A stretch of 64,000 nt of DNA from Methanobacteriota archaeon. GTDB taxonomy: Archaea > Thermoplasmatota > E2 > DHVEG-1. Shown here in pieces: positions 2,489 to 63,906 of this stretch; position 1 is the stretch's first letter; each line of letters starts with the position of its first letter. The stretch covers positions 36 to 64,035 of the forward strand of contig JAZDGT010000044.1 of assembly GCA_043806635.1 (NCBI GenBank). The letters run 5' to 3'. Under the pieces are notes generated by a model that saw nothing but the letters and a program-made list of their open reading frames with translations, ran no database searches and was not told the origin of the DNA. A program made the translations under genes and the position numbers.

Positions 2489-2722
2489 TTATTCGTACGG
2501 TGCGGCATCCTTCAACAAATCAACATGAGACAGAATCATCCGACGGCAACAATACCGATCCAAACCCAAGTTATCTAATATCTGCTGCGGTGTCTCCGGA
2601 GGTTTCTGACCAGCATCCACCGCCTTACGATAGACATCATATCGTTTCTTATAGTCTTCATATAATTGACCGATCACTTTCCCACAGGTAAAACATCTAA
2701 CGGGTATAATCACACACATCAC
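2489..2722 (-). CDS. rpoN: DNA-directed RNA polymerase subunit N (Rpo10/RpoN)
   Basis: 77 aa. [14 protein letters not shown] ... [18 protein letters not shown] zinc-binding motif of RpoN/Rpb10. Conserved position after rps9. Confidence 0.9.
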
Positions 2723-3123
2723 CTATATGATTTCTGTCTTTTCTTTCTCGCCCCTCGACCCAGAGGTTTTTTCGACTCTTTAATACGAGAATCATTGACT
2801 AATAAACCTCGATCATAACTTAAAAAAGACGCTTTCAATCCCGCGTCTCCAGTAAACTCAACTAAACCTCGTGCAATCGCGGTACGCACTGCATTTGCTT
2901 GACTCATGTACCCGCCACCTTGAACACATACATCGATATCAACCTTATCAGCATATGCATCTGCGATCTGTAATGGTTCAACGATACGCCAACGCGCAAT
3001 CTCAGGTTCATACAACTCCACTGGTTTTTTATTTATCCTGATACGACCGATACCCTTCTGAACGGTTGCTTTCGCAATCGCCGTCTTTCGCTTCCCCGAG
3101 GTGTTCACAAGTTTTTTTGCCAT
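2719..3123 (-). CDS. rps9: 30S ribosomal protein S9 (uS9)
   Basis: 134 aa. [20 protein letters not shown] and C-terminal RKKRQKSYR typical of uS9. 4-nt overlap with rpoN. Confidence 0.95.
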
Positions 3124-3124
3124 A

Positions 3125-3538
3125 TTAGAATCGTGCTCCTAAATATCTTGTCAATTCTTCAACGGTAATATATTCAACAGGTTGTTTCTGTGCGACCTTG
3201 ACCGTCTCTAAAGTCTGTCCTTCGAACTCTTTCGGAACGCCAATATAACATTTCAATCGTTTAAATGCTGTTCTTCCATGAGAGGATTGATACGGTATCA
3301 TCCCTCGAATCGTCCGTTTCAGCATAGCATCAGGCATCCGTGGGAAAAACGGACCTTTCCGATACGTTCCCATATTTCTTTTTTCAAGATACTGCGATTT
3401 TATAAGGGATTTTTTTCCCGTGATAATCGCTTTTTCTGAGTTCACCACTGCGATCTCTTCACCGTTCAATAACCGTTTCGCTACCTGCGTTCCCAGTCGA
3501 CCAAGCACGGCACCATCTGCATTAATCACTACAACCAT
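3125..3538 (-). CDS. rpl13: 50S ribosomal protein L13 (uL13)
   Basis: 137 aa. [24 protein letters not shown] ... [17 protein letters not shown] typical of archaeal L13. Confidence 0.95.
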
Positions 3539-3540
3539 AG

Positions 3541-3906
3541 TTATCCCACTATCCGTATATTTTTCCCTGTCGGGTTCTTCTTCATTAATTCTTCTAAAGT
3601 CAGGTGTTTTCCACCAGCTTTTTTTATCTTCTCTACTGATTTCTCAGAAAACGACCACGCTGCTATCGTTACTTTTTTCGTAAGCGTACCCGCAGAAAGG
3701 ACTTTCCCGGGTATAAGCGCAGTCTCTTTTTCGCTAACATAGCGTTCTATTTTTGTGAGATTCACCACCGGCCAATTCCGTAATGGTTTTTCTAACCGTA
3801 CTGCGATATCTTTCCACAGAGGAACTTTCTGTTCATATGATGCTTTTTTTAACTCCTCTATGAGTGAGAGTAACATCGGATTTGTTTTTTTTATTCTCCT
3901 AGCCAT
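3541..3906 (-). CDS. rpl18e: 50S ribosomal protein L18e (eL18)
   Basis: 121 aa. Position at the head of the archaeal L18e-L13-S9-RpoN cluster. KTNPMLLSLIEELKK ... NLTKIERY pattern. Confidence 0.9.
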   Translation of the reverse strand: MARRIKKTNPMLLSLIEELKKASYEQKVPLWKDIAVRLEKPLRNWPVVNLTKIERYVSEKETALIPGKVLSAGTLTKKVTIAAWSFSEKSVEKIKKAGGKHLTLEELMKKNPTGKNIRIVG

Positions 3907-23962: not shown

Positions 23963-24154
23963 TATTACTATAACGAAAAACCGAGATTTTTTTAGTATAT
24001 CGCAATTTTTTTTAATGTAACAAATTATTTATATAATATTAATATAAAGGAAAAATTTATCATATAAATTCGTATAAAATGTGTTGATTGGTATTGATAA
24101 GCAAAAAATTTAAATCGTGCTAGTGTATTGCATCCTTTAGGAGGCTATAAACTT

Positions 24155-24904
24155 ATGCAAAAAGAAGCAATAAAGAAAATATGTGTTATGCTGGTGATTA
24201 CGCTACTCACAGCTAGTTTTGCTGTCGCATTGGGTATGAAAACATTTGCCGCGAAAGGCGGCGATGGTGTACCAATGTTTCAAGAAGGAGATGCAACAGT
24301 AACTGAAACCTCAATTGAAATGCTCATAGAAGGACAGACACAAGGAGTAATAGAAGGAGAAGGACACCAAGGCTGGATAGAAGTTAACTCCTTTTATCAC
24401 GAAATCAGTGTCCCGTATGAAAACGATACCGGATTACCCTCACCCTCAGAACAACGTCAACACAAGCCTATTACAATAACAAAAGAGATCGATAAAGCAA
24501 CCCCCCAACTCTATCAAGCATTGTGCCAAGAGGAACCTTTGACGATCACACTAAGTTGGTACCGAATTGATCCTACAAATATGAAAGAAAGCTGGCAGCA
24601 ATACTATACTATAACATTACAAAATGCGAGAATAGTAATCTATAAAGAATATGATGCTTCAAGTCCGAAGCTTTTTGGATTTAACAATAACTATCTAAAA
24701 ATCGATTGGACATACGATACGGGATCCTCATTTGGAGAATCTGTTCTAGCGGGGGGGAATGATATGCCTATGGAACAAGTAAGTGGTAACTACAGACATC
24801 TTGAGGAAATCACATTTACCTACGAGGAGATCGAGTGGTCATATAATCTAGGTGTTGGTGGAACATACGGAGACAATTGGAACCAGGCACTACCTCCCAA
24901 ATAG
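24155..24904 (+). CDS. Signal-anchored Hcp-like (TssD/T6SS_HCP-fold) domain protein
   Basis: ATG at 24155 follows GGAGG. N-terminal KKICVMLVITLLTASFAVALG. Core aligns by eye with Hcp landmarks: GHQGWIEVNSF, ITITKEIDKATPQLYQALC, YYTITLQNARIV, EEITFTYEEIEWSY. Confidence 0.6.
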   Translation: MQKEAIKKICVMLVITLLTASFAVALGMKTFAAKGGDGVPMFQEGDATVTETSIEMLIEGQTQGVIEGEGHQGWIEVNSFYHEISVPYENDTGLPSPSEQRQHKPITITKEIDKATPQLYQALCQEEPLTITLSWYRIDPTNMKESWQQYYTITLQNARIVIYKEYDASSPKLFGFNNNYLKIDWTYDTGSSFGESVLAGGNDMPMEQVSGNYRHLEEITFTYEEIEWSYNLGVGGTYGDNWNQALPPK

Positions 24905-24935
24905 AGAAAGGAAAATAAGAGGTAGTGTTTCACCT

Positions 24936-27731
24936 ATGGAACACATCATACGAAAAAAACCATTAACCTCGAACATTCTGATTGTAGTCGTGATCTTTGG
25001 ACTTTTAGTAGGAATTGCGGTTGTACTTGGGGATACATCTTTTGTAGGTCGATATTTGTTCAGTGATAGTAGATCCGATACACTAGCTCCGATTGTTGAA
25101 ACATCAGTCGAAATGATTATTTTAGGGCAGAATCAAGGACTGATCGAAGGAGAAGGTCATAATGGTACTATCTTGATTGAGGCTTTGGATCATGAGGTGG
25201 GTCTTGCTTATAACAACGGTACTGGGAATCCTACAGGAACGAGATACCATGAACCACTATGTGTTCTCAAACTGCTTGATAAATCAAGCCCGATGCTATG
25301 GCAAGCGCTCTGTCAAAATGAGTCATTAACTATAACCCTGAATTGGTATCGAAGGGATCCAGGAAATGTAAAAGCTGTCTGGCAACAGTACTATACGATA
25401 ACTTTACAGAATGCGAAAATAGTGATAATGAAGACGTATGACAAGGCTAGCCCCTATCTCTACTCACGATTGATGGAACAAAAAGGGATATATAACAAAG
25501 GAGTATCCCTAAAAAATCCTGTAGATGACGGAGGACAATATAGTATAATAAAATATGAGTGGGATACCAGCGATCAACATGTAGAGGAAATCAGTTTCAC
25601 CTACGAGACGATTATCTGGTCGTATAACCTTGGTCAAGGTGAAGAACAAGGCGATAGTTGGTCTTTAAAAACGATTTATGTCGATGATGATTATAACAGC
25701 TCAACAAGTGGATGGCAAATCAACCATTTTGATACGATACAGGATGGAATCAACAGAGTAGAAGTAAACGGTACTGTGCTCATCTACAACGGTACATATA
25801 TCGAGAATCTGTATATACCAAAGACTCTTTGTTTACAGGGGGAGAATAACGAAAGAACCATTATCGACGGTGGTCAACTTGGTACGGTGATCATTGTTGC
25901 AGCTGATAATGTCATCATCACAGGGTTTACTATTCGAAATGGAATCAACGGTGTTTTCCTTGATTATTGTGTTAATACAACTATTTTTTCCAATATCATC
26001 GACTCAAATATTGGAATGATTGAGGGTTCGGGTATATTGTCGAGTTATTCAAATAACACAACGATGGTACAGAACCAGATCACAAATAATTTTTTCGGTA
26101 TATCTTTAATATACTCAGACAACAACATCATCATAGAAAATATCATCGCATACAGCAGCTCAAATGGGATACATATTATTGATAGTAATAATAATTTCAT
26201 TTATCACAACAACTTTATCAGTAACGCAATACAAACATCATGCTCCCCAGGAACAACTAATATCTGGAATGACAGCTATCCCTATTGTGGTAATCACTGG
26301 AATGATTTTGATGGCAGTGATCATTTTCATGGTCCCAATCAAAATATTCCTGGTCCCGATAATATCTGTGATAGCCCATACCCCATTGAGGGAGAGAATA
26401 ACCAGGATCATTATCCCTTAATGGAACCCTGGGGATATTATATCGAAGGGTTCTGTTCGTACGAGGATACTATACCAACCCTTCTTTCTGTTGAGATCAC
26501 CAACCTAAATACTGGTAAGAAACTTAACGCGGGTATAATAGATAATTACTATCGTCTTATGGTTGCAGTAGGAGAAGATATCACTATCGGTGAGCATCTT
26601 CGATTTATCGCTAAGGACATCACTGACTGTATTAACGTTACAGAGTACGAAATAACAGGAGAAGATATCGTAAGAGGATTTATTCGTCTGAATCTTACTC
26701 TCGATATTCATTACCGAGATCTGAAGAGGTTTCCATTTTACGTTTCAGAGGTTAATACCGGCGCGATGGTGATGAAACAGATGATGGACTACCTGATGTG
26801 GAACAGTACTATAAACCCTGAGAGGCCACCGAGCGTCTACAATGAACAAACCCTGTTCAACCAATACAAAGGAGCCGATGATACTATCAACGGGAGCGAA
26901 CTCTGCAACGGATTAAATACAGAGATTGATGACTTCGGAAACGGGTGGATCTACGGATACTTCTTCGCACCCTCAGCCCGAGACCAAGCAATGGATGCGC
27001 TCCGGGATGCAGTGATCTGGCTTGATTACAATATCAGTGGTGCTAATGATTTCAGATCTGTCGACGTTCCAAAAACTGGTCATCCCTGGCATGTTCCGAT
27101 TGCTGTTCCCACAAGTGGAACCTACGATAAATGGATGGTACTTCGAGGGATACATACGAACCGAAGCATGTGGGACACTACTAACCCCGGTGACCATGAA
27201 CTCATCACCGGCCCAGTTACGATCCACGGGTTTTGGCTCAACGATCCACAGCAAGGAGGAATCGGCGGGAATACCTACGTCACTGCACAGTACTTCACGA
27301 ACGCCTATTTTCAGAGAATTACGATTACCGGTGATCTCTATTATAACAAGTTCTTAGTAATCACTGATCCACCGAGAGACCAACCTATTCCAGAAACATC
27401 CGGACTTGACCTGACCCTAGCAGAGACACCCCAAGGGTTCTCGGTACATGAAGCAGAACTCGTTGCCCAACAGAACAAGAGAGGAATGAAAACTACCGCA
27501 GATACCATTGTAACACGTGTTGCATTCGATGAAGCATTCAAAGTGCTTCGCTACGACCCTATCGGGGAAACATTCGAAGCAGCGAATCCTATCGGAAAAC
27601 CGCTCTATAAGCGCGACACCTGTACAGTTACTTTCGGTAACAACAGCGTTATCTTCACCGTAATCCTCAACAAGCAGAATGGTGCCCTTCAGGAAATCCA
27701 TATTCAAAACAAAAGTACGCTACTACAGTAA
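24936..27731 (+). CDS. Signal-anchored Hcp-like domain fused to a NosD-type parallel beta-helix and an unknown C-terminal domain
   Basis: Start at the ATG at 24936 (MEHIIRKK...). TM LTSNILIVVVIFGLLVGIAVVLG. Paralogous Hcp-like region (GEGHNGTILIEAL, LLDKSSPMLWQALC, WQQYYTITLQNAKIV). Beta-helix repeats ending in CGNHWNDFDGSDHFHGPN...DSPYPI...DHYPLMEPW. Confidence 0.65.
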   Translation: MEHIIRKKPLTSNILIVVVIFGLLVGIAVVLGDTSFVGRYLFSDSRSDTLAPIVETSVEMIILGQNQGLIEGEGHNGTILIEALDHEVGLAYNNGTGNPTGTRYHEPLCVLKLLDKSSPMLWQALCQNESLTITLNWYRRDPGNVKAVWQQYYTITLQNAKIVIMKTYDKASPYLYSRLMEQKGIYNKGVSLKNPVDDGGQYSIIKYEWDTSDQHVEEISFTYETIIWSYNLGQGEEQGDSWSLKTIYVDDDYNSSTSGWQINHFDTIQDGINRVEVNGTVLIYNGTYIENLYIPKTLCLQGENNERTIIDGGQLGTVIIVAADNVIITGFTIRNGINGVFLDYCVNTTIFSNIIDSNIGMIEGSGILSSYSNNTTMVQNQITNNFFGISLIYSDNNIIIENIIAYSSSNGIHIIDSNNNFIYHNNFISNAIQTSCSPGTTNIWNDSYPYCGNHWNDFDGSDHFHGPNQNIPGPDNICDSPYPIEGENNQDHYPLMEPWGYYIEGFCSYEDTIPTLLSVEITNLNTGKKLNAGIIDNYYRLMVAVGEDITIGEHLRFIAKDITDCINVTEYEITGEDIVRGFIRLNLTLDIHYRDLKRFPFYVSEVNTGAMVMKQMMDYLMWNSTINPERPPSVYNEQTLFNQYKGADDTINGSELCNGLNTEIDDFGNGWIYGYFFAPSARDQAMDALRDAVIWLDYNISGANDFRSVDVPKTGHPWHVPIAVPTSGTYDKWMVLRGIHTNRSMWDTTNPGDHELITGPVTIHGFWLNDPQQGGIGGNTYVTAQYFTNAYFQRITITGDLYYNKFLVITDPPRDQPIPETSGLDLTLAETPQGFSVHEAELVAQQNKRGMKTTADTIVTRVAFDEAFKVLRYDPIGETFEAANPIGKPLYKRDTCTVTFGNNSVIFTVILNKQNGALQEIHIQNKSTLLQ

Positions 27732-30287: not shown

Positions 30288-33200
30288 TTATAGTTTCCCG
30301 AGGTCTGTTGGCGGTTTTTGGTATGTATTCTCTTTTTTGTCGTCTTTGGTTTTTTGTGGGTCTTTCGGTTTTTCGTCGATGTAAATGAACCCGGCTTTGA
30401 AGAGAACAACAATAACGATGATAATGGCAAGTATTGCGCCGAGTATCACTGCGATGAGGGTAAACGGGAGTTGTATTGTTGGTAGTATAGGGGGTTGTTG
30501 CGCGGCGATCGCAAAGGTTGAGAGGCCAGTTGTAACTGCTTTGTAGTAGACGTACATGTCGTCTTCATTGACTATGGTGGTTTCGAGTTGTTCCCATTGG
30601 TTGTTGTGGTATCGCATGAGGACAATATTGGTTTTATCGATGTCGTGTTCAGTGAACCATTCTTGTTCTACTTTGAAGGTGATGGTAAATGTTTCGATGC
30701 TTCCTTCCTCAGCAGTGGTTTCGATGGTGAGGTAGCAATAGACATTTGCTGTGGGCTCTAGGATTCCTTTGGGTAGTTCTGTGAGACTTTCGACAGAGAT
30801 GGTGACGTCGATGAGGTTCCCTGCTGCGGTGATTTCTATGGAGTCGATACCAGTTGCGGTGTGTTCTAGGGAAATGAATTGTGTATCTCCTTTGGTGAGG
30901 TTTTCGATGGTCTCGTTGATTTTCGTGATTTCTTCTTGTACTGTGAAGGTCCAGGTTTTTGTTGCTTGGTTATTATATGTGTCTGATACGGTGACGGTTA
31001 TGGTGTGTGTTGTGTAGCTCATGGGGATAGTGGGGGTGTAGGTGACTTGTGCTAGGGTTATGGTTGCTGATGAGGTGACATTGGTTCCATCGACGCGGAT
31101 GGTTATGGATCCTGCTTTGATCCCACTGGGGTCAGTGTAGGTTGCTTGTATGGTCGGTGTTCTATCATTGGTTGTTGTTCCTGCTGTTGGGTGGAGGTTG
31201 GTGATGGTTGGTCCTGTGCCGTCTACGACGGTGAAGCTGTAGGTTGCTGATCGGGTGGTTTGTGATGCATTGTCTTGTGCGATGATCCAATAGTTCACGG
31301 TGATGCCATCAAGGAACGGACCGATTTCTGTCACGTAATCATTGCCGGTTCCTTTAGTCATTGCTCTGGAGTGGTTTGATCCATCGTTCCAGTAGAGTGT
31401 GACTAAGGAGACGAGGTAGTTATCGGTGACGGTTGCATAGATAGTAACGTAGTTGTTACTCGTAATTGTTGTGGGTGTATGGGAGATGCCAGAGATGGTT
31501 GGTGGAGTATCTCCTCCAGTTACTGGTGGTTCTGGACCAGGTCCTGATGGTGGTGGTGATTCTGAGGCAGCGGTGGTGAAGGTATCATCTGAAGAGGTGT
31601 TCTGGTTCCCTGCTTTATCATAAGAGATGACGCGGTAATGATAGGTGGTACTTGCGGAGAGGCTGGTCAGGGATCGGGAGTGGGAGGTTGTGTAGGTTGA
31701 ACTCGTGCTTGTTGATCCGTAGGAGTCGGTGAGTCCGTATTCAACGGTGCTGTTTGCGTCTTCATCTGTTGTCCAGGTGATCGTTGCTGAGCTTGCGGTG
31801 GGAGTACCAGAGCTGATGGAGGAGAGTTCTGGTAGGGTGTTATCCACGGTGACGTCTAGAGTGATCCAGTTTCTGACGCCTCCAATGTTTCTTGCGGTGA
31901 GATTCAGGGTGTAGTTGCCGTCGTCAAGTGCGGAGGTGTTCCAGCTCCCAAGAGTATCATTTTCAACTGCTGAGGTTGAAGAAGTGATGGTCGTCCAGGT
32001 GATTTCATCTGCGGAGTAGTTCAGCCAGTATTTGTTGAAGTTGGTGTCGGTTGCGTTTCCGGTGATGGTTACGGTGTCTTTCACGTAGATCCATCCGTCG
32101 CCATCATCATCTGTTGGTGAAGCGATGTCAACGGTGGGTGCGCTGGTGACAATGGTGGTGTAGGTATCGTAGGTTGATGCGGTTTCTGTATTGGATACGT
32201 TGTCTTTCGCGATAGAGCGGAAGTAGTAGGTGGATCCAACTGCTCCGTTATAGATGAGGGTTCCGCTTGATGAGGTACTGGTGGTGTAGTTCGTCCATGT
32301 TCCACCGGTACCGTTCTTGATTTGGATTGTCACATTTTTGACGCCACTGTAGGTGTCTGATGCAGCCCAGGAGACGTCGAAGGGTGTGGTGCTGTAGGTT
32401 GAGAGCGCGGTGATGCTTGAGGTGGGTGCTGAGGTATCGATTTTGATATATGCGGTATTTGGTGTTTCTGTGTTTGTCGCGTTGTCTTTTGCGCGATATT
32501 TTAGTGTGGTGTTTCCTTGCGCGCTGAAGAGGAGTGGAGTGGTGTATTGTGTTGATGAGTTGGTGGGGCTTGACCCATCTGTTGTGTATCGGATTTTGTA
32601 GACCCCACTAGTGTCATCGGTTGCGGAGAGGGTGATGGTGACTGCGGTGTTTTTCCATCCTGTTCCTGTTGGTGAACGGCTAATTGAGGTAATTGGCGCA
32701 ACTGTGTCTACTTTGAGTGTTTTTGTATGGGTGCTTTCAATATTGGGTGTCGTGTTTTTGTCGTAGGAGTAGTACATAATCGTGTAGGTGTCATCACCAA
32801 GATCGTTATCGCCACCGATAGTGAATGGTGATGTGTATTGTGTTCTGTTTTGATTCGATGTGTTCGTTGGGTTGGTTCCATCTGTGGTGTAATAGGTTTT
32901 GTTCACGCCTTTCCCGTTATCAACCGCGGTGAGGGTGACAGTGACTGCTGATCGTTGCCAACCTGTGGGAATATTATCAGTTGTGGCGGGTTTTTTATCA
33001 TCATAGGACATTCCTGATACACTAGTCACGGTTTTATTCTCGTTTGGTGGTGAAGCGGTGTCGATGGCAGTGACCGCGTAGTAGAAGGTGGTATCATCTG
33101 TTGCTGAGGTATCATCGTAGGTGGTTGTTGTTTTCTCTGTTATTGTTGTGAGGAGTTGGACGCCTGATGCGGTGACGTTGGTAAATGAGCTTGTTCTGCG

Positions 33201-61005: not shown

Positions 61006-63906
61006 TTATTGTTCTTGGAGATGCAACGTTATTTCGTTCTTTCCTTTCACAGCAAGCCAGGGTATGGTAACCTCTGCGTATCCATGACCTGGAACAGTGA
61101 GGTTAATCACCTTATTTTTTTCTTCCCCGTTTACTGCAAGTACGATAGTAAGATTTCGTGCTGGAATCGAGCTTTGATTTTCTATTTTAAAAGAAGTGAT
61201 AATTTTATCGCCTGCATTAAAAGTTTGAGGCCAATGATACACCTGAGTGATTCTAAGATGAGGTTTCCCTTTCACAGCGGTAACCATAAAATGAAGATCA
61301 GTATGTTTCTGTTTTCCAAGGGTGTTTACGGATAGTTTTACCTCAGTCCATGTGTTTGTACTCAGTTGAGTAACAGGTCTCACGAGTAGTGTTATCTGTG
61401 TTGACTGTCCGGGTTCTATGAGAACACGATGCGTGTCAAGACTAACATCCCAACTTGGAGACATCGGAATAACTGCTGCGTAGAGCTCATAGGTCCGAGG
61501 TTTCTTCGTTGGATTCTGTAAGGTAACAAGAAACTGCGCATCCCCCGTTGAGTATGTCTCCTTCACACGATCATCACAGAGGAGGGTTACAGACCGTGAA
61601 GTCATCATAAGCGCAAGAATGATGAGTATAATGAATATAAAGATAACCAGGATAAGAACCGCTAGGGCTACGGGTGCAAATGAGCCGAAGATTTCGTCGA
61701 GCCCGAGCATCTCCGCTGCTGATGTGAACAACCCTGCTATTGCTTCAAGGATTCCTTCTCCGCGTACTTGCACAGTCATGTTGATAGTCGCGGTCGTATC
61801 AGTATTTGTTTGTGAGGTTGCAGTAAAATGAATCTGATCAGAGGACACGGTAGTGTTTTCAGGGACAAACACAGTAACCTTCACTGATTTTTCTCTGCTG
61901 ACGCGAACGTCAGAGAGTATCTCTTCGTGAGTAAGACCCCAGTTGTGTTCTGAGATTATGGTGATTCGATAGGTATCAACGTCATCGATGGCACCAGTAT
62001 TATTATTTTTTACTTTAAAGGTGTAGGTCTGATTTTCTCCCTTTTTAATGGTGAGTTCAGTGTCATTCATTAGTCTCAATTGGATGTCATACTGTATGGC
62101 GTCTTCGGAGATGGTGACTGAGGAGGTTTTTTCTATTTTCCCTGTTTTACCGGTTACGTTTATGGTGAGGTCGATGTAGTTGCCGTAGGCGTCTTTCGTG
62201 TTCTCTGAAGAATTCACGTAGACATGGATAACGTGGTATCCGTTTGCGGGGATTTGAACTGATTCTGGTGTAACCGTGATCTCCCAGGTCCCTTTTTTCT
62301 TCTTAGTCTGTTCTTTGATTTGTATTGTATCAGAATATTTGCTCGTGATATTGAGGGTATACTGGACGCTTCCTCCGGGGACTATGGCTTCTGTAGTTGG
62401 GTCACTGGATATCGTTGCATCAATGTTTGTTGTCTCTTTCAGATTTAGTTGAAGCGATGAAGGGGATTCACTGGAATCATAGACGATATAGAGTTTTCGT
62501 AGACCAAGTCTTGTCTCATTTTCAAATGAGATACCTAAACGGACTTCGTGATTATTCCAGAGTTCATAGTTGAGATCAGTAAACGAGAAGGAGGTGACAG
62601 ATTGCTGTTTCTGTATCAGGTCTAGGATTCTTGTTCTGTTTAGTATAAGGGTATCGGATGCGATCTCTTTATCGTCATCATATACTGTGGCTTTTAAGGT
62701 TATTTTGCGTAGGTTGACCAAGCTTCGATAATCAAGATAAATGGTTGCTTCAGCGGAGTTAATGATTTTATTGCGTTCAAAGTTTGGACCAGACCAGATG
62801 AGGGGATCGGTGGAGATGTTATTACGTTGAGATTCATCTGCGGTTGGCTGATCGGCATCCATTGTTTGATCTGCATGGAGATAGTAAGTGACTGTGTTTT
62901 CTAGTTGCGTGGATGGCATGAGGAGCGGCACAGTGACTTTTGCGGGGTGGGTATTGGAACCAAATACGAAGGATGATCCGAGCATGGCATCGGTAAACTC
63001 GGCGAGGTCTGCAAGACTGAGATTTACTCCTTCTGATGCGAACATGTCGCTCATATTGATGAATTCATTGATGGTGTCACCGATGTCTTTGAGTTTTTCG
63101 ATGCGTCGGTTACTAAGGAAATCAGCGAATTTTTCTCCGATTGTTTTGGCTTTTTCTTCAAAGCCGCGTTCTGAGAGCCGGGTGAGTAGTCGTCCAATTA
63201 CTCGTTCGCTTGGTATCATTTCGATGGTGAAGACGAGGGTTTCTTGTGGAGCTACTATGATGTGTTCATTTGAGAGGTCTAGGGTGACGGTATAGGGTTT
63301 GATTCTTCGAGGTATAAGTGTTGGTTTTATAGTGAGGGTTGTGTTTGAGATTTCTTCGGGGAGTAAGAATGAGCTTTTTGCAACGCTGATTTTTACGGTA
63401 TCCCGATTGATTAATCGGGATTTAGAGGAGAAAAATAAGTCGAAGATGATTTCTCCGTTGAGTTCAACTGGGGTTTCCCCAGTGTAGGTGTAGCTTTCGT
63501 GGACTTTGAAGGGGTTGTAAATGTCGAGAAAGCTTTGGAACTCGGGAGGGATCTCTCCAAATTCTTCGAATTCATCGGGTAAGACATCAAGGAATTTGAA
63601 GGTGACCCAGAGTTCGAACCAGGAGAGCCATCGTTCTGAGTTAATGTTGGGGATTAAGCCGTCTTTGACGAAGAGTCGTGGTGGCCAGTAGGAGTCATTG
63701 GTTTTTGTTGGTATGATGGTATCCATGATCACGTTTCCGAGGTCGTCTATGTTTTCGGAGAAGAGTGGATCGTAATCAGTAAAATATAAGACGGTTTTTT
63801 CTGCTGTTGCTGCGGTGACTGGGGTTGTGATGAAGAGCGATGAGAATGAACCTAGAAGAAGGATAAGAATAACTATAATCGCTTGTACTGTTTTGGGTGT
63901 ATGCAT
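61006..63906 (-). CDS. Large exported/membrane protein with CARDB/NEW3-like beta-sandwich domains on both sides of an internal TM helix
   Basis: 966 aa. Signal peptide AIIVILILLLGSFSSLFITTPVTA. Internal TM FAPVALAVLILVIFIFIILIILALMM (about nt 61611-61701). Repeated beta-sandwich patterns (PGGSVQYTLNITS, GENQTYTFKVKNN, FKIENQSSIPARNLTIVLAVNG). Confidence 0.65.
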   Translation of the reverse strand: MHTPKTVQAIIVILILLLGSFSSLFITTPVTAATAEKTVLYFTDYDPLFSENIDDLGNVIMDTIIPTKTNDSYWPPRLFVKDGLIPNINSERWLSWFELWVTFKFLDVLPDEFEEFGEIPPEFQSFLDIYNPFKVHESYTYTGETPVELNGEIIFDLFFSSKSRLINRDTVKISVAKSSFLLPEEISNTTLTIKPTLIPRRIKPYTVTLDLSNEHIIVAPQETLVFTIEMIPSERVIGRLLTRLSERGFEEKAKTIGEKFADFLSNRRIEKLKDIGDTINEFINMSDMFASEGVNLSLADLAEFTDAMLGSSFVFGSNTHPAKVTVPLLMPSTQLENTVTYYLHADQTMDADQPTADESQRNNISTDPLIWSGPNFERNKIINSAEATIYLDYRSLVNLRKITLKATVYDDDKEIASDTLILNRTRILDLIQKQQSVTSFSFTDLNYELWNNHEVRLGISFENETRLGLRKLYIVYDSSESPSSLQLNLKETTNIDATISSDPTTEAIVPGGSVQYTLNITSKYSDTIQIKEQTKKKKGTWEITVTPESVQIPANGYHVIHVYVNSSENTKDAYGNYIDLTINVTGKTGKIEKTSSVTISEDAIQYDIQLRLMNDTELTIKKGENQTYTFKVKNNNTGAIDDVDTYRITIISEHNWGLTHEEILSDVRVSREKSVKVTVFVPENTTVSSDQIHFTATSQTNTDTTATINMTVQVRGEGILEAIAGLFTSAAEMLGLDEIFGSFAPVALAVLILVIFIFIILIILALMMTSRSVTLLCDDRVKETYSTGDAQFLVTLQNPTKKPRTYELYAAVIPMSPSWDVSLDTHRVLIEPGQSTQITLLVRPVTQLSTNTWTEVKLSVNTLGKQKHTDLHFMVTAVKGKPHLRITQVYHWPQTFNAGDKIITSFKIENQSSIPARNLTIVLAVNGEEKNKVINLTVPGHGYAEVTIPWLAVKGKNEITLHLQEQ

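Follow-up and report, generated by a model that had tools for sequence, protein, structure and literature searches.

A tandem pair of Hcp-family genes with predicted export signals on an archaeal contig, one of them fused to a beta-helix surface protein

Two Hcp-family genes lie in tandem on the contig

The DNA analysed here is a stretch of 64,000 nt from one contig (JAZDGT010000044.1), referred to below as the window, whose GenBank source label is "Methanobacteriota archaeon". All statements on the absence of genes for a type VI secretion system (T6SS) or a contractile injection system (CIS) cover these 64 kb. The window carries two co-oriented genes, here called gene 1 and gene 2, which are separated by a gap of 31 nt and encode proteins of the Hcp/TssD family, the family of the T6SS tube protein. 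Gene 1 starts with the ATG at 24155, which has a Shine-Dalgarno sequence, GGAGG, 10 nt upstream at 24140-24144; its mechanically called open reading frame (ORF) begins further upstream, at the TTG 24128. The ATG of gene 2 at 24936 is preceded at a distance of 12 nt by a GAGGT at 24919-24923. The features of the two genes are listed here, P0002 being a metagenomic ortholog of the gene 1 product that is described below.

24155-24904, + strand: gene 1, 249 amino acids (aa), putatively signal-anchored Hcp-like protein, GenBank MFH1101546.1, from its ATG to the stop codon
24155-24235, + strand: gene 1 residues 1-27, predicted Sec signal peptide or signal anchor (hydropathy, helix 2-31 of the AlphaFold2 (AF2) model, conservation in P0002)
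24308-24883, + strand: gene 1 residues 52-243, Hcp beta-barrel, split by an insertion (Pfam, TIGRFAM, AF2, Foldseek)
24656-24796, + strand: gene 1 residues 168-214, clade-specific insertion (alignments; low-confidence AF2 region)
24936-27731, + strand: gene 2, 931-aa fusion protein, GenBank MFH1101547.1, from its ATG to the stop codon
24972-25031, + strand: gene 2 residues 13-32, NILIVVVIFGLLVGIAVVLG, hydrophobic helix after a basic RKK (hydropathy; conserved start of the gene 2 ortholog on contig L005)
25092-25676, + strand: gene 2 residues 53-247, Hcp domain with a similar insertion (Pfam, TIGRFAM, alignment, 44% identity to gene 1)
25683-26435, + strand: gene 2 residues ~250-500, NosD-type right-handed parallel beta-helix with C-terminal cap (PF05048, PF13229)
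26436-26720, + strand: gene 2 residues 501-595, beta-sandwich, transthyretin- or CBM-like (AF2 strands 2-94; weak Foldseek matches 2J71, 5AQ0, 2XET)
26721-27728, + strand: gene 2 residues 596-931, alpha/beta core of the C-terminal module (AF2, 313 homologues)

Both products are members of the Hcp family by homology and fold

A preliminary description of this locus, made from the sequence alone, had aligned the two products by eye with bacterial Hcp/TssD, and the profile searches bear this alignment out. Against Pfam T6SS_HCP (PF05638), for which the curated cut-off is 23.5 bits, gene 1 scored 103.8 bits (E=1.1e-29) and gene 2 scored 80.8 bits (E=1.4e-22); against NCBIfam TIGR03344 (TssD), with a cut-off of 58.9 bits, the scores were 118.2 and 101.1 bits, respectively. 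A phmmer search of the PDB sequences matched Pseudomonas aeruginosa Hcp3 (3HE1) at E=6e-20 and Vibrio cholerae Hcp at E=7e-14. TssD is already the PGAP name of both genes, and their Hcp homology is therefore not new.

A predicted structure of the Hcp domain was made for gene 1, and the fold of gene 2 is taken from its identity to gene 1, which amounts to 44% over 246 residues and includes the exact block WQQYYTITLQNA that had drawn attention to the pair as tandem copies. The AF2 model of gene 1, built from an alignment of 46 sequences, has a mean predicted local distance difference test score (pLDDT) of 79.7; in it, a helix at residues 2-31 leads through a disordered linker into a beta-barrel whose strands lie at 52-167 and 215-241. 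When the model was compared with the PDB by Foldseek, the top matches were all Hcp structures and not an unrelated beta-sandwich, an outcome that the preliminary description had named as one that would refute it. The best E value was that of 6A2V (4.5e-15, template modelling (TM) score 0.80), 4HKH gave a TM score of 0.84, and over these two together with 3HE1 and 5MXN the E values ranged from 1e-13 to 4.5e-15 and the TM scores from 0.77 to 0.85. The family-invariant residues G93, D113, P117 and D240 are retained in the archaeal Hcps, as are nearly all of the near-invariant ones in the alignment. We conclude that both genes are true members of the Hcp/TssD family by homology and by fold.

Two features set the archaeal barrels apart. 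One is an insertion of about 45 residues ahead of the last strands, which is not present in bacterial Hcps; it falls below a pLDDT of 50 at gene 1 residues 180-209, and it opens with a second copy of a helix motif, D-x-x-S-P-x-L-[FY]. The two copies read KEIDKATPQLY and then KEYDASSPKLF in gene 1, and KLLDKSSPMLW and then KTYDKASPYLY in gene 2, where the insertion lies at about 25431-25600; the motif of the family can be written D-K-(A/S)-S-P-x-L, and P0002 has a third copy. From these repeats the insertion looks like a partial internal duplication, the remainder of which is variable and predicted to be disordered. The other feature is that the loop following the first strand is shorter by 4 residues (GVIEG----EGHQG; window positions ~24350-24370, around gene 1 residues 66-72), a deletion that could relate to a loss of sheath or tube contacts. 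The same loop deletion was seen in a few signal-bearing bacterial Hcps (P0052, P0059) and not in the Hcps of T6SS loci.

Both proteins start with a predicted export signal

As the preliminary description had it, each of the two ORFs opens with a basic stretch followed by a hydrophobic helix. The N-terminus of gene 1 consists of the basic MQKEAIKK and 19 hydrophobic residues ending in AVALG, with a Kyte-Doolittle 15-mer maximum of 2.49, and that of gene 2 consists of MEHIIRKKPLTS and 20 hydrophobic residues ending in AVVLG, with a maximum of 3.34. That these segments are real, as had been proposed, is borne out by their translation, their conservation and their likeness to the signals of secreted neighbours. 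Of the first 45 codons of gene 1, 23 are identical in P0002, 12 differ synonymously and 10 non-synonymously, and the nucleotide differences are distributed 8/3/17 over the three codon positions; the N-terminal stretch of gene 1 is therefore translated and under purifying selection. Met41 of gene 1, a possible start for a signal-less product, is not conserved in P0002, and in gene 2 no ATG lies in frame between the hydrophobic helix and the first Hcp strand. A similar basic n-region with a hydrophobic h-region of about 20 residues heads the secreted proteins encoded nearby, namely a PQQ/PKD protein, a 5,003-aa protein and a 966-aa protein.

The type of the signal was considered as well. A class III (type IV pilin-like) signal was rejected because there is no [KR]-[GA] motif, the junctions being KK-ICVML and RKKPLTS-NILIV, and a lipobox signal was rejected from the N-terminal sequence. 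Gene 1, gene 2 and P0002 share a conserved candidate cleavage motif, (A/V)-x-L-G. Judged from these sequence features, export of both proteins is fairly likely; we infer that it would proceed by the Sec route, with the topology and the possible cleavage that such signals predict. Since the positive charges are on the N-terminal side, the positive-inside rule would place the Hcp domains outside the cell.

In gene 2 the Hcp domain is fused to a widespread surface-protein architecture

Directly after the Hcp domain of gene 2 begins a beta-helix (TIYVDDD...), and the NosD-type assignment made in the preliminary description is upheld by PF05048 (NosD), which matched residues 310-460 at E=2.7e-16 with 60.1 bits (cut-off 23.6), and by PF13229 (Beta_helix), which matched at E=5.9e-9 with 36.2 bits (cut-off 25.9). 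Gene 2 was rejected as NosD proper, as it reached 67.2 bits against the cut-off of 300 for TIGR04247 and lies in no nos gene context. No second signal peptide was found between the Hcp domain and the beta-helix; a true fusion is thus probably to be preferred over the loss of a stop codon between two genes. A search with full-length gene 2 returned 294 homologues, all of them beta-helix proteins, and among these none besides the query itself has an Hcp domain.

The last 431 residues of gene 2 (501-931) form a module, also encoded at loci L006-L026, that had been described as an unknown domain of about 370 aa. Indeed, no match was found for it in Pfam, NCBIfam or the PDB sequence profiles, nor did Pfam detect anything in the shared region of all 25 module members, but the module is not specific to gene 2. 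An exhaustive HMMER search of a representative library gave 313 homologues at E<=1e-3, 71 of them at E<=1e-30. The module (~420-430 residues) ends within a few residues of the C-terminus in homologues of up to 3,380 aa, the distance being 0 in gene 2, and the domains upstream of it in the homologues include FG-GAP, CARDB, NosD, PQQ propeller, LamG, InlB-B repeats and C10 peptidase. Because the module always terminates large multidomain proteins with such upstream domains, gene 2 is a member of this class of surface proteins. Within GTDB, its archaeal bearers are Thermoplasmatales, other "Methanobacteriota archaeon" metagenome-assembled genomes (MAGs), ANME-1, Methanosarcinales and Micrarchaeota, and its bacterial bearers are Phycisphaerae/Planctomycetota and one MAG of the Acanthopleuribacteraceae. 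At least 3 more proteins bearing it come from the same MAG as gene 2, judging by the accession series MFH1100578 to MFH1101547.

In the AF2 model of the module (pLDDT 85, predicted TM score 0.85), a beta-sandwich precedes an alpha/beta core. Foldseek searches of the PDB and BFVD gave no significant fold match for the core and weak matches only for the first ~95 residues, the sandwich. A Peptidase_C10 match in P0339 was rejected as the identity of the module, since it covers the end of another domain that lies further upstream. Judged by eye, the motifs GAxVMKxMxDYL ... HVPIAVP ... WMVxRG ... GFWLNDP come in an order like that of the C39_2 domain of P0171, a resemblance that hhalign did not support. 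In the comparison with P0171, only the beta-helix cap and the sandwich could be aligned by hhalign, and a focused hhalign comparison gave a probability of 5%; the idea that the core is a degenerate C39-like papain fold without the cysteine is accordingly unsupported and is kept only as a lead.

The archaeal pair is an old resident of its genome

Searches of 5.8 billion protein clusters yielded a single close relative of gene 1, P0002, which comes from JGI metagenome 3300035659 and is 52% identical in amino acid sequence. Its contig of 1,225 bp (L005) carries the 3' end of a PIMT gene, the gene 1 ortholog and the start of a gene 2 ortholog, MKEEIKKKSWTSNIFL. In the window, too, gene 1 is preceded by a PIMT gene, so that the order PIMT-gene 1-gene 2 is the same in two independent assemblies. 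The GC content, the GC content at third codon positions (GC3) and the codon usage of both genes are within the range of the host. From the shared synteny and the host-like composition it follows that the pair is an old resident and not a contamination; recent horizontal gene transfer and a chimeric origin are ruled out on the same grounds.

A pattern scan of 185,579 GTDB species, based on the alignment of the Hcp domains of gene 1, P0002 and gene 2, found no more archaeal relatives, and it missed the P0002 contig as well. The same alignment gave no further relatives among metagenome contigs and viral contigs. Either the archaeal Hcp clade is rare or the pattern scan was too strict.

Signal-bearing Hcp proteins recur in bacteria

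The other matches of the archaeal Hcps are bacterial Hcps with about 30-39% identity, the best being at about 34-36%, and those with an organism name are mostly from Phycisphaerae. As the archaeal Hcp has its closest relatives among bacterial T6SS-type Hcps, those of Phycisphaerae included, a bacterial origin is indicated; as far as sequence comparison can tell, the domain was most likely acquired anciently from bacteria and is now adapted to its host.

A signal peptide is present at the N-terminus of at least 16 of the 58 bacterial Hcp matches. The signal-less P0005 (Phycisphaerales) lies in a complete T6SS locus with TssM, TssA, VipA, VipB, TssE, TssF, TssG, ClpV and VgrG, where VipA/VipB flank it on one side and TssE/F/G, ClpV and VgrG on the other. 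For the signal-bearing P0011, P0017 and P0046, the three loci examined, no T6SS genes were found within +/-10 kb. The P0011 locus (L001 10001-11296) is itself a tandem pair of Hcp genes, of 180 and 241 aa, both with hydrophobic N-termini, and is a bacterial counterpart of the archaeal arrangement; the pair is situated between a Ser/Thr kinase gene and central-metabolism genes on a bacterial metagenome contig of 143 kb. A neighbour-joining tree places the signal-bearing Hcps on scattered branches and unites the archaeal trio in a clade of its own. The polyphyly of the signal-bearing Hcps points to repeated recruitment. In P0052, P0053 and P0056, a collagen-like Gly-X-Y stalk stands between the signal peptide and the Hcp domain, a layout that suggests exported, stalked Hcp modules.

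In the literature we found no published description of an exported or signal-peptide-bearing Hcp apart from one exclusion note: Howard et al. (2021; PMC8262886) removed from their survey of Hcp those PF05638 genes that had a PEP-CTERM sorting signal. Exported Hcp-domain proteins have therefore been met before but not studied.

Chromosomal setting

The remaining features that bear on the setting are the following.

23963-24154, + strand: AT-rich intergenic leader of ~190 nt, 5' of gene 1, a putative promoter region (read from the sequence)
2489-3906, - strand: cluster of RNA polymerase (RNAP) subunit N, uS9, uL13 and L18e genes, a direct sign of an archaeal contig

The leader contains TATA-like runs around 24030-24070, and the gene 3' of gene 2 is a convergent one that encodes an adenosine-specific kinase (PF04008). 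Given the gap of 31 nt, the AT-rich leader ahead and the convergent gene downstream, gene 1 and gene 2 look like a self-contained operon. The window is archaeal chromosome, as it harbours the genes for RNAP subunit N and ribosomal proteins together with RPA-like and MCM-WH-like genes; a DRG GTPase, a carbamate kinase, LarA and HDAC were also recognised by Pfam.

Among the other ORFs of the window scanned with Pfam, for which the 5,003-aa ORF was used as a trimmed sequence, no T6SS or CIS family was found. This agrees with the earlier remark that no sheath, VgrG or baseplate gene occurs in the window. A six-frame scan with hidden Markov models revealed no further Hcp domain and no second copy of the C-terminal module in the 64 kb.

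Very large secreted proteins adjoin the Hcp pair at 28397-50836, possibly as a cell-surface island. They include a 587-aa protein with a PQQ beta-propeller and PKD, the 5,003-aa protein, which has CarboxypepD_reg, DUF4785_3rd, fn3 and chitobiase-C domains, and a 1,326-aa protein with a gingipain-like C25 peptidase and a PKD domain. A short, imperfect tandem repeat of 17-19 bp in 2.3-2.6 copies (30333-30378) lies close to the 3' end of the 5,003-aa gene. The 966-aa protein is encoded at 61006-63906 on the - strand; its signal peptide is clear, and Pfam gave no match to it at E<=1e-3.

What the two proteins may do

We favour, with modest confidence, the reading that the Sec-exported Hcp barrel works at the cell surface as a scaffold or a module for oligomerisation and not as an injection tube. 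A bacterial Hcp would have been captured by an archaeal lineage, would have gained a Sec signal and been duplicated, and one copy would then have been fused to a native surface chassis. In the cell, the N-terminus would stay in the cytoplasm and the remainder would be translocated via Sec, with the Hcp barrel coming to lie on the outer face of the cytoplasmic membrane, where it would be either tethered by the uncleaved signal anchor through a linker of ~24 residues or released after (A/V)-x-L-G. Gene 2 would put its Hcp barrel ahead of the archaeal chassis of beta-helix, sandwich and C-terminal module, and gene 1 would supply a free Hcp subunit, probably co-assembling with the gene 2 product through the Hcp ring interface. 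Both the co-assembly and the surface role of the two proteins are thus presumed on this account.

Several points weigh against it. The absence of T6SS and CIS genes is a finding on the 64-kb window, and the rest of the MAG may hold such a system; the retained family residues of Hcp would equally suit a conventional tube role. The h-regions of 19-20 residues fit a cleaved signal and an anchor alike, and ring formation of the Hcp domains is a presumption. Moreover, only one MAG and one contig of 1.2 kb have yielded the archaeal form, and the fusion of Hcp with the beta-helix has been seen in a single assembly, as the ortholog is cut after 16 codons.

The same observations can be read in other ways. 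A cleaved gene 1 product might polymerise into an extracellular fibre or tube without a sheath, with gene 2 as a tip or base subunit that displays the beta-helix as an adhesin. In crystals and in vitro, Hcp rings need no sheath to stack into tubes; the Hcp fold is complete and the family-conserved residues are retained, one free and one fused Hcp subunit are combined in a single operon, and a possible cleavage motif, (A/V)xLG, is present in gene 1, gene 2 and P0002. However, the cleavage and the polymerisation are purely conjectural, the disordered 45-residue insertion and the 4-residue loop deletion could disturb the stacking of rings, and no dedicated assembly genes were found nearby among the scanned ORFs of the window, so we regard a fibre as rather unlikely. 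The clade-specific insertion and the loop deletion would also suit a barrel that has lost ring formation and become a monomeric ligand-binding or spacer domain, like an immunoglobulin (Ig) or PKD module; chassis homologous to that of gene 2 do carry many interchangeable passenger domains. Against such a monomer stand the strong retention of the family-invariant residues of Hcp and the upkeep of a separate Hcp-only paralog beside the fusion in two lineages, which suggests an interaction, and it has in our judgement only a small chance of being right. Quite improbable is a decoy, that is, surface Hcp barrels that sponge the Hcp-dependent effectors or the T6SS parts of attackers, for example Phycisphaerae, with the periplasmic, signal-bearing Hcps of bacteria doing the same. 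Hcp rings bind effectors in their lumen, the nearest relatives are the T6SS Hcps of Phycisphaerae and other bacteria, and the sharing of the C-terminal module with Phycisphaerae suggests a common habitat and gene exchange. The idea is nevertheless purely speculative and has no immunity-like context, it leaves the fusion to a beta-helix and a surface module unexplained, and the ~35% identity of the archaeal clade to any bacterial Hcp makes specific mimicry unlikely.

A conventional view would be that gene 1 and gene 2 supply the tube of a T6SS or CIS whose other genes lie in another part of the genome, as normal subunits, and that their hydrophobic segments are start artefacts or irrelevant. 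It agrees with the TssD names given by PGAP and with scores well above the TssD cut-off, archaeal contractile systems do exist (PMC11566945), and gene 1 has internal methionines at positions 28 and 41. Yet purifying selection acts on the hydrophobic segment, P0002 has no counterpart of Met41, a Shine-Dalgarno sequence stands ahead of the upstream ATG, and gene 2 is without an alternative ATG after the helix. Furthermore, no T6SS or CIS gene is present in the 64 kb, the known archaeal T6SS uses a Cis1 tube (PMC11566945), the signal-bearing bacterial Hcps that were examined lie outside T6SS loci, and an extension of 680 aa with a beta-helix would not fit within a sheath. We therefore consider this view very improbable. 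Bacterial contamination of the archaeal bin or a chimeric assembly might be suspected, because the Hcp family is otherwise bacterial and no relative was found among the 185,579 GTDB species representatives, but the genes are placed between archaeal housekeeping genes on one contig, the PIMT-Hcp-Hcp order recurs in an independent metagenome, and the GC content, GC3 and codon usage are host-like, by which this suspicion is effectively refuted.

The surface-scaffold reading can be widened into a doubtful but more general proposal: the Hcp fold would have a second functional class, Sec-exported and forming extracytoplasmic rings or short tubes without sheath, spike and baseplate, which would have arisen repeatedly in bacteria and been captured once by an archaeal lineage, where gene 1 as the free subunit and gene 2 as the subunit fused to a beta-helix adhesin would build a hexameric or tubular surface appendage anchored in the membrane.

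Significance

Hcp is treated as a diagnostic marker of T6SS, and the automatic annotation of the archaeal pair follows this practice. The evidence presented here indicates that a part of the Hcp family, comprising the archaeal pair and a polyphyletic set of signal-bearing bacterial proteins, no longer serves the injection machine and goes out through Sec instead. The novelty lies in finding together an archaeal host, signal anchors, two genes in tandem, a beta-helix fusion and the link to an undescribed class of exported Hcp-domain proteins. The preliminary description had seen in the locus an Hcp fold recruited as a Sec-exported surface module, of which no account was known; the signal-bearing orphan Hcps of bacteria support the recruitment, but with these exported Hcps in existence and TssD already given by PGAP the case is less unprecedented than was claimed.

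If this is true, surveys based on markers would report too many T6SS and would wrongly credit archaea with them, and the phage-tail-tube fold would be reusable as a building block of the cell surface. The locus would also be a clear case of an old transfer from bacteria to archaea with later fusion to a native surface-protein chassis, and it would offer a small, defined protein for probing the assembly of Hcp rings and tubes outside the cell. The C-terminal module of gene 2, which is confidently modelled without a fold match, is of interest in its own right, as hundreds of giant surface proteins from archaea and Phycisphaerae terminate in it.

Comparison with known systems

The archaeal proteins are homologous to bacterial Hcp/TssD (Hcp3 3HE1, V. 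cholerae 5MXN and P0005) over the whole Hcp domain, with the same barrel (TM scores 0.80-0.85) and the same invariant residues. Compared with the bacterial Hcps of T6SS, the archaeal pair adds the predicted signal or anchor helix and the insertion of ~45 residues and lacks 4 residues in a loop; it resides in an archaeal host without T6SS genes in 64 kb, whereas P0005 lies inside a complete T6SS locus. T6SS tube proteins have no signal peptide, while hydropathy, the AF2 helix and conservation indicate one in gene 1 and gene 2, and the window holds none of the linked genes for TssB/C, VgrG, TssE/F/G/K or TssJ/L/M.

Like the evolved Hcp (Hcp-ET), gene 2 has a long C-terminal extension after the Hcp domain. 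Its extension, however, consists of a beta-helix, a sandwich and a surface module and not of a toxin, a predicted signal anchor is present, and the next gene is the convergent PF04008 kinase gene instead of the adjacent immunity gene that would accompany a toxin. The orphan bacterial Hcps with signal peptides (P0007, P0011, P0017, P0046, P0059, P0060) and the PEP-CTERM Hcps (PMC8262886) have in common with the archaeal pair a Sec-type signal and a location away from T6SS loci. The orphan proteins differ from it in their short classical signal peptides with a clear AxA, and they have neither the fusion to a beta-helix nor the archaeal insertion.

The preliminary description had held that T6SS is not an established archaeal machine. 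This is outdated, since a haloarchaeal CIS acts as a T6SS, with a Cis1 tube, a Cis2 sheath and a baseplate, and is assembled in the cytoplasm (Zachs et al. 2024, PMC11566945); the tube is named Cis1 in that paper, from which the word Hcp is absent. The trait that it has in common with the present locus is a phage-tail-like tube fold in an archaeon. Here there are two Hcp-family genes with predicted export signals, the 64 kb being free of machine genes, and Pfam detected no Cis1-Cis2 cluster of tube, sheath, baseplate and spike among the ORFs of the window.

Finally, gene 2 is to be compared with the NosD-type beta-helix surface proteins of archaea and Planctomycetes (P0181-P0195, including P0188 and P0190). 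These proteins have no Hcp domain, but residues 250-931 of gene 2 have the same architecture as they do, and their module, which is always C-terminal, is 40-62% identical to that of gene 2.

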